From: an uncultured Gemella sp. | Lineage (GTDB): Bacteria > Bacillota > Bacilli > Staphylococcales > Gemellaceae | Direction of reading: 5' to 3' | Length of the DNA: 64,000 nucleotides | NCBI GenBank assembly: GCA_963528605.1 | Contig: CAURVX010000003.1 | Location: forward strand, 2,273 to 66,272 | In this document: piece by piece, positions 35,482 to 36,633 of the stretch | Numbering within the stretch: position 1 is the first letter of the stretch | How the letters are laid out: each line of letters begins with the position of its first letter | Translations under genes and position numbers: made by a program | The notes under the pieces: generated by a model | Databases searched by the model: none | The model's input: only the letters and a program-made list of their open reading frames with translations | Told to the model about the DNA's origin: nothing

Positions 35482-36633
35482 ATGACTAGAAAGGCAAAAA
35501 TTATAGCAACTTTGGGAAATAGTACAGAGGGGATCTTAGAGGAGATTGTTGCTAGAGGTGCCGATGCTGTATTAATTGATACATATTATGGAAGTGCAGA
35601 AGAGTGCATCGATAGAATTAATAAAATAAAAGAATTAAGAGATGAATTAGATAAAAATACTGCAATTATTTATGACTTGGATCATATTTATGCGGAAAGT
35701 AAATATAAACTAATAAAAATAGGAGAAGAAAATGTTCATTTTGCTTGTCAAAATGATGTTGATTTTGTTGCTTGTCCATTTGTTAGTAACTTAGATGAAA
35801 TCAGAAAAGTAAAAGATATATTGCAAGTTCAAGGGAAAAAAGATATTGGATTAATAGTAAAAATTGACTGTAAAGAAGCATATGAAAATATCGATGAAAT
35901 TATTCAATTTGCCGATTCTATTATGATAAATAGGGATGAACTTGGAATGGAGTTACCGTATCAAAACTTACCAAGTATTCAAAAAGAAATTATTAGAAAA
36001 GCTAATGATGCAACGGTAGAAGTAATATTAACTACTCAAATGTTACACTCTATGATTTATAATCCTAGACCTACACGTGCAGAGGTTTCGGATGTTGCGA
36101 ATGCAGTTATTGATGGAGTAGATGCAATAATGTTAATAGAAGAAACAGCAACTGGAAGCTATCCAAAAGAGGCGTTACAAACTGTCGATAAAATTATCAG
36201 TTATGTAGAAACTCAAGACAGAGTACTTGATAGAGATGAAGATGAGTATAAAAACCATAAGATGGATATAGCGCACGCTATTTCATTATCAACTAAATAT
36301 TTGCTTGATTCATTAGATGTAAATAATATTGTAACTTATACAAAATCTGGTAGCACAGCCAAGTTTATCGCAAGGTATAAACCTAGAGTACAAATTTTGG
36401 CTGTAGTTCCTTCAAAACAAAATGCTAGAAAATTAGCTTTAACACGTGGTGTTACTACATTTATTGAAGAAAGAACACTTCCTATGGAAGAAATGTTAAA
36501 CTTAGCACCAAAATTTGCTAAGGAATCAGGTTTAGCAAAAGAGGGAGATTATATCTTAATCACAGCAGGACAACCTGATCTTGGGAAAGATAATGTTCCA
36601 CCAACTGATTTTGTTAATATCAGACAAGTTTAA
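35482..36633 (+). CDS. Pyruvate kinase homologue lacking the B domain, with a degenerate active site
   Basis: KIIATLG, TQML.SM..NPRPTRAEVSDVANA..DG.DAIML, C-terminal TKSGSTA; only 383 aa. Confidence 0.85.
   Translation: MTRKAKIIATLGNSTEGILEEIVARGADAVLIDTYYGSAEECIDRINKIKELRDELDKNTAIIYDLDHIYAESKYKLIKIGEENVHFACQNDVDFVACPFVSNLDEIRKVKDILQVQGKKDIGLIVKIDCKEAYENIDEIIQFADSIMINRDELGMELPYQNLPSIQKEIIRKANDATVEVILTTQMLHSMIYNPRPTRAEVSDVANAVIDGVDAIMLIEETATGSYPKEALQTVDKIISYVETQDRVLDRDEDEYKNHKMDIAHAISLSTKYLLDSLDVNNIVTYTKSGSTAKFIARYKPRVQILAVVPSKQNARKLALTRGVTTFIEERTLPMEEMLNLAPKFAKESGLAKEGDYILITAGQPDLGKDNVPPTDFVNIRQV

Follow-up and report, generated by a model that had tools for sequence, protein, structure and literature searches.

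In textbooks, bacterial pyruvate kinase (PK) is a homo-oligomer under small-molecule control. One gene of an uncultured Gemella sp. (GenBank assembly GCA_963528605.1, contig CAURVX010000003.1) raises the question of what a PK homologue does that has no lid domain and a rewritten active site. The stretch of DNA analysed (hereafter the window) is 64,000 nucleotides long and encodes, at 35482-36633 on the plus strand, an intact lidless PK homologue of 383 aa with no internal stop (P0001, here called S1). An earlier note, made from the DNA letters, had read this frame as uninterrupted and furnished with its own promoter, Shine-Dalgarno sequence and terminator, and all of these are indeed present (an extended −10 site, AGGTGAGG and a hairpin at 36657). 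The features of the locus are as follows.

35413..35441, plus strand: sigma70-type promoter, with −35 TAGAAA at 35413-35418, TG at 35433-35434 and −10 TATAAT at 35436-35441 (10/12, extended −10).
35450..35463, plus strand: putative cre-like (CcpA operator-like) palindrome, a pattern match nine bases past the −10.
35465..35472, plus strand: Shine-Dalgarno AGGTGAGG, read from the sequence.
35482..36633, plus strand: coding sequence of S1 (P0001), from ORF, Pfam, alignment, AlphaFold and Foldseek.
35572..35592, plus strand: LIDTYYG (L31-G37) in place of RLNFSHG, from alignment.
35671..35721, plus strand: linker Y64-I80 where the B domain would be, with 11 of its 17 positions invariant.
35860..35868, plus strand: KID, with K127 kept and the metal-binding Glu changed to D129, from alignment.
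35929..35946, plus strand: NRDELG (N150-G155) for ARGDLG of the active-site helix, invariant in 45/45 lidless sequences.
36034..36105, plus strand: TQML...NPRPTRAEVSDVANA (T185-A208), the catalytic Thr and the A-A interface helix with its Arg R199, from alignment and complex model.
36274..36579, plus strand: PK_C effector domain, residues 265-366, from Pfam.
36340..36360, plus strand: effector phosphate loop TKSGSTA (T287-A293), from alignment.
36657..36700, plus strand: intrinsic terminator-like hairpin with T tail, from terminator search.

The promoter is the top-scoring of 12 sites in 35100-36900, where the number of sites is itself at chance level (12 versus 11.7 expected), and its −10 region is conserved among relatives in 20 aligned upstream regions. 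Two terminators were found in the S1 region against 0.3 expected.

In profile searches S1 was matched by Pfam PK in two stretches and by PK_C, and by both profile and fold it belongs to the PK structural family (PF00224/PF02887), having the barrel and the alpha/beta C domain. The B (lid) domain inserted in the barrel, a feature of EC 2.7.1.40, is absent. Alignment with the full-length Pyk of Gemellaceae places residues 69-175 of Pyk (107 aa, comprising both hinges and the B domain) opposite residues 66-80 of S1 (15 aa), in agreement with the earlier note, which had a short linker replacing the hinge and B domain at ~35670-35730 (Y64-E83 of the linker region covers 35671-35730). The AlphaFold model, built from a 26-row alignment, is a PK A+C core with pLDDT 82.5 and pTM 0.86, falling below 50 in linker residues 69-74; its best Foldseek match is S. 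aureus PK (TMq 0.89), and no fold other than PK occurs among the matches listed. With canonical PK (EC 2.7.1.40; nearest solved structures S. aureus 3T05 and G. stearothermophilus 2E28) S1 thus has in common the A barrel, the C domain, the A-A interface helix, the catalytic Lys and Thr and the effector phosphate loop. Unlike canonical PK, it has neither a B domain nor an extra C-terminal domain, carries 10 rewritten and fixed active-site positions, and coexists with a canonical Pyk.

To describe the active site, we compared residues of 45 lidless proteins, 24 Gemellaceae Pyks, 12 outgroup PKs and 130 diverse full-length PKs (those of 147 representatives that passed a length and motif filter). 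At the 79 positions conserved in canonical PKs the lidless proteins keep 58, relax 10 and change 11 to a new fixed residue. Ten of these 11 belong to the active site (R34>L, N36>D, S38>Y, H39>Y, S194>P, E224>D, A245>N, G247>D, D248>E and A279>T); for Arg, Lys, Glu, Gly, Asp and Thr the assignment follows the set discussed below. The new active-site residues are fixed in 96-100% of the 45 lidless sequences; in LIDTYYG, which rewrites the PEP-phosphate Arg together with the N/S/H cation and nucleotide positions, L31 and D33 are found in 45/45 and Y35 and Y36 in 96%. Of the active-site set Arg, Lys, Glu, Gly, Asp and Thr, as given in the available part of PMC8637920, S1 keeps Lys and Thr and has changed the other four (Arg>Leu, Gly>Asp, Glu>Asp, Asp>Glu). 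The alignment agrees with the earlier note on RLNFSHG to LIDTYYG, KIE to KID and ARGDLG to NRDELG; its fourth change, SGETA to IEETA, is there as well (SGE[ST]A>IEETA), but the G>E step occurs also in full-length PKs (P0130) and is not diagnostic.

The active site of S1 is rewritten, not decayed. Eight of the 10 rewritten active-site positions are invariant against a background of 120/383 (31%), with p ~0.002, and 11 of 17 linker positions against the same 31%, with p ~0.005, both values being overstated because the sequences are kin. Since the new residues are fixed and invariant, the site is not decaying and the new residues are under selection. PK chemistry is very probably gone from S1, judging from the residues replaced, and we predict with considerable confidence that the protein has no PK activity. 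Lid loss alone is no proof of catalytic inactivity: the lid is reportedly not essential for E. coli PK from which it was removed by engineering (so the title of a 2020 study by Sugrue et al.). This counts for S1 being a slow but genuine PK isozyme, as does the score of S1 above the TIGR01064 equivalog cut-off (308.9 versus 306.4 bits; true Pyk reaches 602, and the S1 orthologue L056 lies below the cut-off at 294.6) and as do lidless PKs related to those of Patescibacteria, in which all core catalytic motifs are retained. In S1, unlike that family, the Arg for the PEP phosphate has gone, and so have the N/S/H residues and the active-site helix's G-D; we regard a slow isozyme as highly improbable.

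An invariant rewritten site leaves room for a new function there, and repurposing of the site is therefore the first rival to be weighed. S1 would then act alone as a homo-oligomer, its barrel site serving another ligand or partner or a metal-dependent 2-oxo-acid/PEP-type reaction, with the C-domain pocket still coupled to it; the invariant set concerned would be D33, D65, H68, Y70, K127, D129, N150, D152, E153, T185 and E221. The 11 rewritten and fixed positions among 79, 10 of them at the active site, and the 11 invariant positions of the 17-residue linker argue for it, and so does the combined Glu>Asp and Asp>Glu swap, which retains two carboxylates at the metal site while Lys and Thr are kept. 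Against it, the phosphate-binding Arg is lost, Gly>Asp and Ala>Asn would leave no room in the pocket where the substrate carboxylate binds, and Foldseek returned PKs only among the matches listed. We consider repurposing unlikely, though it deserves to be kept in sight.

The distribution survey covered 61 genomes: 37 Gemellaceae, with 32 from the genus and five from its sister genus, and 24 from the rest of the order. S1 is intact in 32/32 genomes of the genus and 4/5 of the sister genus, that is, in 36 of 37 Gemellaceae, and was found in 0/24 other genomes of the order; the orthologues from the 36 genomes have no stops down to 58-59% identity. In the exception, a sister-genus genome that is 97% complete (G036), a profile of the N-terminal part of S1 detected nothing lidless. 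When all species genomes were scanned with a pattern, 40 of 74 candidate stretches proved to be such loci, 39 of them titled Gemella or Gemelliphila and one Streptococcus sp.; of the best 150 among 1.84 billion cluster representatives, only two were of the S1 type. Atlas clusters of 381-385 aa bearing the name pyruvate kinase serve as leads only.

S1 is under purifying selection despite its lost catalytic residues. By the Nei-Gojobori method, with pairs filtered to dS 0.05-1.2, its median dN/dS is 0.073 (278 of 630 pairs), next to 0.075 for Pyk (181 of 276) and 0.084 for a second lidless paralogue, S2 (35 of 36); over 69 of 253 matched genome pairs, dN of S1 is 2.4 times that of Pyk. That S1 is a decaying pseudogene or an assembly artefact has next to no probability and is refuted by an intact gene in 36 genomes, a dN/dS of ~0.07 and a conserved promoter. 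In codon bias S1 stands at the 35th percentile, which is ordinary, as is S2, whereas Pyk is in the top 1%; this suggests that expression of S1 is far below that of Pyk in fast growth.

Of the 37 Gemellaceae genomes, 34 have a match to a full-length Pyk, in some at contig edges, and its gene comes after pfkA in all 24 loci with neighbours examined. In the present assembly, which is 81% complete, the true pyk was not found. We read its absence as a gap because dnaE and pfkA are likewise missing and because contig C42 starts ~50 bases behind the position at which pyk ends in a close relative. The candidate explanation that S1 is the only pyk of the genome was rejected on the same grounds, the edge of C42 marking a contig gap. 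Distribution, dN/dS and the pfkA-pyk loci of Gemellaceae thus support what the earlier note had proposed, a paralogue maintained alongside a true pyk. Of the checks that it had named, the search for a separate full-length pyk turned one up in those 34 genomes, outside this assembly, and the look at conservation gave S1 in 36/37 Gemellaceae at dN/dS ~0.07. Neither a genome with S1 as its sole pyk nor strain-specific neutral decay, the outcomes named there as counter-evidence that sequence can address, was observed, the true pyk itself lying outside this genome's own assembly.

In the loci examined with their neighbours, S1 is never adjacent to pyk, and in the loci examined it has no operon link to pyk or to any pathway. 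It lies downstream of folB-folK-dusB in most loci and is relocated in three. The lack of conserved pathway neighbours speaks against a repurposed site. In favour of one, S2, which is 62% identical to S1 and present in 13 genomes (here at G000:C43:2004-3152), lies upstream of cdaA-cdaR, and its divergent neighbour encodes a PgtP-like phosphoglycerate/PEP transporter.

As to the origin of S1, unconstrained trees left the long-stemmed S1/S2 family unplaced and not beside Gemellaceae Pyk. A constraint grouping the lidless family with Gemellaceae Pyk changed the likelihood by +9.8, with a p-AU of 0.84. The lidless family has ten rare residues in common with Gemellaceae Pyk and none with the outgroup, and Gemellaceae Pyk is the best match for 4/5 lidless queries among 397 full-length PKs. 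On the best reading of these comparisons S1 would have arisen by duplication of Gemellaceae pyk. The long stem branch bears also on a further explanation, in which S1 would retain a moonlighting role of PK apart from Pyk regulation, such as the DnaE polymerase interaction of B. subtilis PykA. PykA makes contact with DnaE on primed DNA through its catalytic domain, according to the available text of PMC10143966, and the exposed invariant surface of S1 fits a protein-binding face; with so long a stem, however, the ancestral surface is not obviously retained, and we hold such a role to be very unlikely.

Other natural lidless PKs exist, one group related to Clostridium (P0123, P0285 and P0319) and another to Patescibacteria (P0195, P0404-P0406, P0409, P0415, P0418 and P0421). 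As in S1, the B domain has been removed at the same hinges in both groups and the His of NFSHG is changed, in the Patescibacteria-related group to Tyr, as in S1. Unlike S1, the latter group retains R, KIE and ARGDLG, with its core catalytic motifs intact, and the Clostridium-related group has ARGHLG. A single origin of all lidless PKs was rejected, as the one-clade constraint fails on 30 chosen rows; lid loss arose independently in other lineages.

In S1, segment 179-213 is 77% identical to the Pyk consensus and 80% invariant, compared with 43% (164/383) and 31% (120/383) for the whole protein, and residues 194-208, the A-A interface helix, are identical to Gemellaceae Pyk. The earlier note had TQML and the NPRPTRAEVSDVANA interface retained, and the alignment agrees. 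The segments with the C-C interface helices are only 27% and 43% identical to Pyk, and these helices are much less Pyk-like than the A-A interface. The Arg of RPTRAE is described as reaching the neighbour's active site, as part of allostery in S. pneumoniae PK (available part of PMC10338316; cf. PMC8637920). Folded together with the Pyk of G006, a genome whose own S1 is 99% identical to that of the window, S1 docks via the A-A interface with a score of 0.72, against 0.00 for the best of three controls, a pass that may merely reproduce the PK tetramers already solved. The mark used is reached by 116/157 solved complexes and 2/215 mismatches; the runs agree in at least 98% of contacts, the partner has pLDDT of at least 82, and 22 of the 34 modelled interface residues match Pyk. 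Resemblance to solved tetramers would by itself lead one to expect such a pass, and all PKs share the A-A helix, so the model does not separate mixed from self assembly, and neither do the interface residue pairs. A hetero-oligomer of S1 and Pyk, as suggested in the earlier note, is compatible with both interface and model.

The A-A conservation and the S1/Pyk model would also fit an S1 that activates or stabilises Pyk, keeping it on when sugar-phosphate activators are low. There are precedents in the plant plastid PK beta subunit (PMC13409958) and the trypanosome prozyme (PMC5201418), as far as the available parts of these sources go. Against an activator, the cre-like operator and weak codon bias would make S1 scarce when Pyk flux peaks, and G036 is viable with no S1. 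We judge activation distinctly unlikely.

The C domain, with its effector loop, had been called intact. The TxSGxTA pattern is present, but position 288 has changed: it is Lys/Arg in 45/45 lidless proteins and Glu in 24/24 Gemellaceae Pyks and 12/12 outgroup PKs. The position aligns with K408 of S. pneumoniae PK, at which streptococcal PKs have Lys with FBP activation and Glu with G6P, and FBP binding in the S. pneumoniae enzyme requires His411 (both from the available part of PMC10338316). Compared with the T-K-T/S-G-H-T loop of that enzyme, S1 has the Thr, Lys, Ser, Gly and Thr, while the His411 position is variable (S/T/Q/K/N/A); since this partner is absent, FBP is a candidate ligand only. 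In 11 of 34 Pyks the loop itself is altered to TELG (Ser>Leu) and a ring loop is two residues shorter. S2 is present in 10 of the 11 genomes with a TELG-type Pyk (the eleventh has pgtP at a contig end) and in one of the 23 others; because the TELG-Pyk genomes form one clade, this counts as one event. The altered Pyk loops of the S2-bearing clade look as if sensing had been handed over, a point in favour of the activator.

Regulation of S1 may be sought in the palindrome just past the −10, a position in which a cre-like site is expected to repress. The cre-like pattern was drawn from the S1 site itself and the general cre consensus. It was compared afterwards with the consensus in the available part of PMC3463425, whose C13 the S1 site lacks. 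The class has 10 sites in this genome, all intergenic (0-5 in 20 runs of shuffled intergenic DNA), and none in coding DNA, where shuffles give 4-8; four of the others lie upstream of glgB, nanA, an aldehyde dehydrogenase gene and D-ldh, and at one mismatch none lies upstream of ppdK or fbp in this genome. Among 36 orthologous S1 promoters the site is found in 25 with at most two mismatches (19 exact) and is absent in 11. A CcpA-like protein scores 362-377 bits in 5/5 relatives, under the family cut-off of 442, and was not found in this assembly.

Pyk is also shorter in this family: it has 479-481 aa in 24/24 Gemellaceae, against 585-614 aa in 12 outgroup PKs, a difference of ~105. PF00391 was detected in the one outgroup PK scanned and in neither of two Gemellaceae Pyks scanned. 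According to the available text of bioRxiv 2024.08.15.607825, this extra C-terminal domain autoinhibits PK in four Bacillota, B. subtilis among them, and the PEP pool cannot build up in gluconeogenesis without it; in S. aureus, which is closer to Gemella, the domain reportedly promotes PK activity, and many PKs that have no such domain remain regulated. PPDK and a class III FBPase match were each found in 22 of 24 Gemellaceae genomes searched, and PEP carboxykinase in 0/24; the present genome encodes ccpN-like/PSRP/ppdK. In G036, the sole Gemellaceae genome with no S1, PPDK is missing too and the FBPase is without its first 174 residues, which is one case; in G035 S1 is present and PPDK absent.

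From these observations we put together a reading in which S1 is a non-catalytic subunit that joins Pyk via the A-A interface and brakes it at low sugar. As a whole we hold it tentatively, as a possibility somewhat short of even. S1 would be a duplicate of Gemellaceae pyk, lidless, kept by purifying selection and catalytically dead. In species with the cre-like site it would be under CcpA-type repression on glucose. S1 and Pyk would form mixed oligomers, in which S1 would give the RPTRAE helix with R199 to the neighbouring Pyk active site; this step we rather favour. The new residues fixed in the former active site would lock S1 in one allosteric state. S1 would inhibit Pyk, with a sugar-bisphosphate or a comparable anion in the Lys-bearing pocket as the gate; it would stand in for the autoinhibitory extra C-terminal domain lost from Gemellaceae Pyk, and braking would spare PEP for gluconeogenesis (PPDK/FBPase) and PTS uptake. 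Given mixed oligomers, this last group of steps seems to us probable. In order of strength, the absence of PK activity comes first, followed by the duplication origin, CcpA-type repression, mixed oligomers and the inhibitory direction; brake rather than activator is inferred from context.

Several observations count against the brake. S1 lies away from pyk, and its ordinary codon bias, next to the top-1% Pyk, means that there may be too little of it to brake Pyk stoichiometrically. Of 36 promoters 11 have no cre-like site, the site in the window lacks C13, the CcpA-like protein is below its cut-off, S1 has no His411, and G035 has no PPDK. The A-A interface would stay conserved in a self-assembling protein too, and the invariant site and linker fit a new ligand or catalytic site equally well.

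In its proposed way of working S1 comes closest to paralogues that are regulatory pseudoenzymes. The alpha/beta PK of plant plastids also includes a paralogous PK subunit of little activity of its own, called regulatory; the beta subunit is needed for high PK activity, and co-assembly is proven there and only predicted for S1 (PMC13409958, available part). The same review, as far as its available part goes, states that a split into catalytic and regulatory PK subunits is not seen in bacteria or animals. The Drosophila '-like' paralogues, including Pykl, likewise come from duplication of glycolytic genes, with products predicted to be inactive and proposed as regulators; unlike S1 they are eukaryotic and testis-biased (PMC11836677, available part). 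Trypanosome prozyme is a dead paralogue that controls its parent AdoMetDC through hetero-oligomerisation, as proposed for S1, but it belongs to a different enzyme family and activates instead of inhibiting (PMC5201418, available part). In function the proposal comes close to the ECTD/PEPut domain (PF00391) of Bacillota PKs, which holds PK down in gluconeogenesis and enlarges the PEP pool (bioRxiv 2024.08.15.607825, available text). Unlike S1, this domain acts in cis and has an unrelated fold, and Gemellaceae Pyk has no ECTD. We found no description of a natural lidless PK or of a Gemella PK paralogue in the literature searched, which excluded most subscription journals.

More broadly, and a shade more tentatively than for the brake itself, we suggest that Gemellaceae PK may have been split into a catalytic chain and a catabolite-controlled lidless sensor chain, which would make it a bacterial heteromeric PK. 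The sensor would replace the autoinhibitory domain, S2 would have come with a PEP/phosphoglycerate importer in the clade with the degenerate-loop Pyk, and at least three bacterial lineages would have arrived at PK regulators or new activities by the same step, excision of the lid. If true, a conserved lidless subunit would be a new mode of control of the PEP node, and also a natural, testable probe of communication between the effector site and the neighbour's active site, the route of which has long been debated. If S1 acts alone, a PK barrel would have been recruited for a new ligand or reaction.

S1-type proteins are named pyruvate kinase in public records. Since S1 passes the curated PK cut-off and bears this name, an enzyme that is probably dead enters metabolic models of Gemella, and in genomes as incomplete as the present one S1 would be annotated as the only PK. 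Beyond what the earlier note had seen, the analysis brought up the invariance of the rewritten site, the Glu>Lys change in the effector loop, the cre-like operator, S2 and the loss of the autoinhibitory domain from Pyk.

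P0001, the lidless pyruvate kinase (PK) paralogue encoded by S1, scores 2.5 bits above the TIGR01064 cut-off. Public records call its relatives pyruvate kinase or PykF (entries P0001, P0079 and P0090), a naming that is likely to be an annotation error. PKs devoid of the B domain are also found in other lineages. Patescibacteria-related proteins of this kind, 369-393 aa long (P0195, P0404-P0406, P0409, P0415, P0418 and P0421), have the R, KIE, ARGDLG and TQML/TEML motifs all intact and, judged by these motifs, are candidates for naturally lidless active PKs. Clostridium-related lidless PKs (P0123, P0285 and P0319) carry ARGHLG, in which the metal Asp is changed to His, and are nested among full-length clostridial PKs.

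Changes are also seen in the canonical full-length enzyme, Pyk. TELGKT replaces TESGQT in the effector loop of 11 of the 34 Pyks, those of the window's clade (loci L040-L042, L049, L050, L136-L139, L141 and L142), and the ring loop of the same 11 proteins is shorter by two residues. At the sequence level, the effector pocket of the clade's own Pyk looks degenerate.

The second lidless paralogue, S2, and two antiporter-like genes located upstream of S1 are as follows:

G000:C43:2004-3152, S2, within locus L057 (G000:C43:114-5201) of the window's own assembly
G032:C34:1966-3306, pgtP-like gene (L146) in one genome of the sister genus, 4.5 kb upstream of S1
Window 25197-26534 (-), second organophosphate:phosphate antiporter-like gene, ~9 kb upstream of S1

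In L057, S2 forms a divergent pair with a gene for a PgtP-like phosphoglycerate/PEP antiporter (709.8 bits, below the cut-off of 750) and is immediately followed by cdaA and a cdaR-like gene. This layout is identical in nine mapped loci as well as in L148 and L149. The pgtP-like gene of the sister-genus genome is 92% identical to the copy beside S2; this likeness far exceeds that of the PK genes, and a transfer is likely. The antiporter-like product encoded in the window is 39% identical to the PgtP-like protein, and its gene is found at a comparable distance from S1 in several relatives.

The L057 spacer holds a cre-like 14-mer (resembling the CcpA operator palindrome) with one mismatch. Beyond the site at S1, G000 has nine cre-like sites, every one intergenic (C13:12660, C22:11762, C23:7521, C25:13821, C32:19952, C42:602, C42:2041, C53:333 and C8:15971), four of them upstream of glgB, nanA, an aldehyde dehydrogenase gene and D-ldh.

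The ccpN-like, PPDK regulator and ppdK genes are consecutive in L168 (G000:C2:42574-46700). The folB-folK-dusB genes lie directly downstream of ppdK in G033 and ~6 kb from it in G005 and G025. These are the three genomes in which S1 is not behind dusB, and the proximity may be due to chance. Only one Gemellaceae genome, G036 (loci L163 and L135), is missing the lidless gene; it also lacks ppdK, and its fbp is missing the first 174 residues.

Two other genes lie near S1:

Window 30906-33110 (+), gene for a secreted-type protein of 734 aa that contains an endonuclease/exonuclease/phosphatase domain
Window 36842-37702 (+), downstream of S1, weak sortase match (21.1, below the cut-off of 26.6)

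The former protein carries a C-terminal LPKTG, and its counterpart gene is split in G020. The latter gene follows S1 at many loci, though not all.
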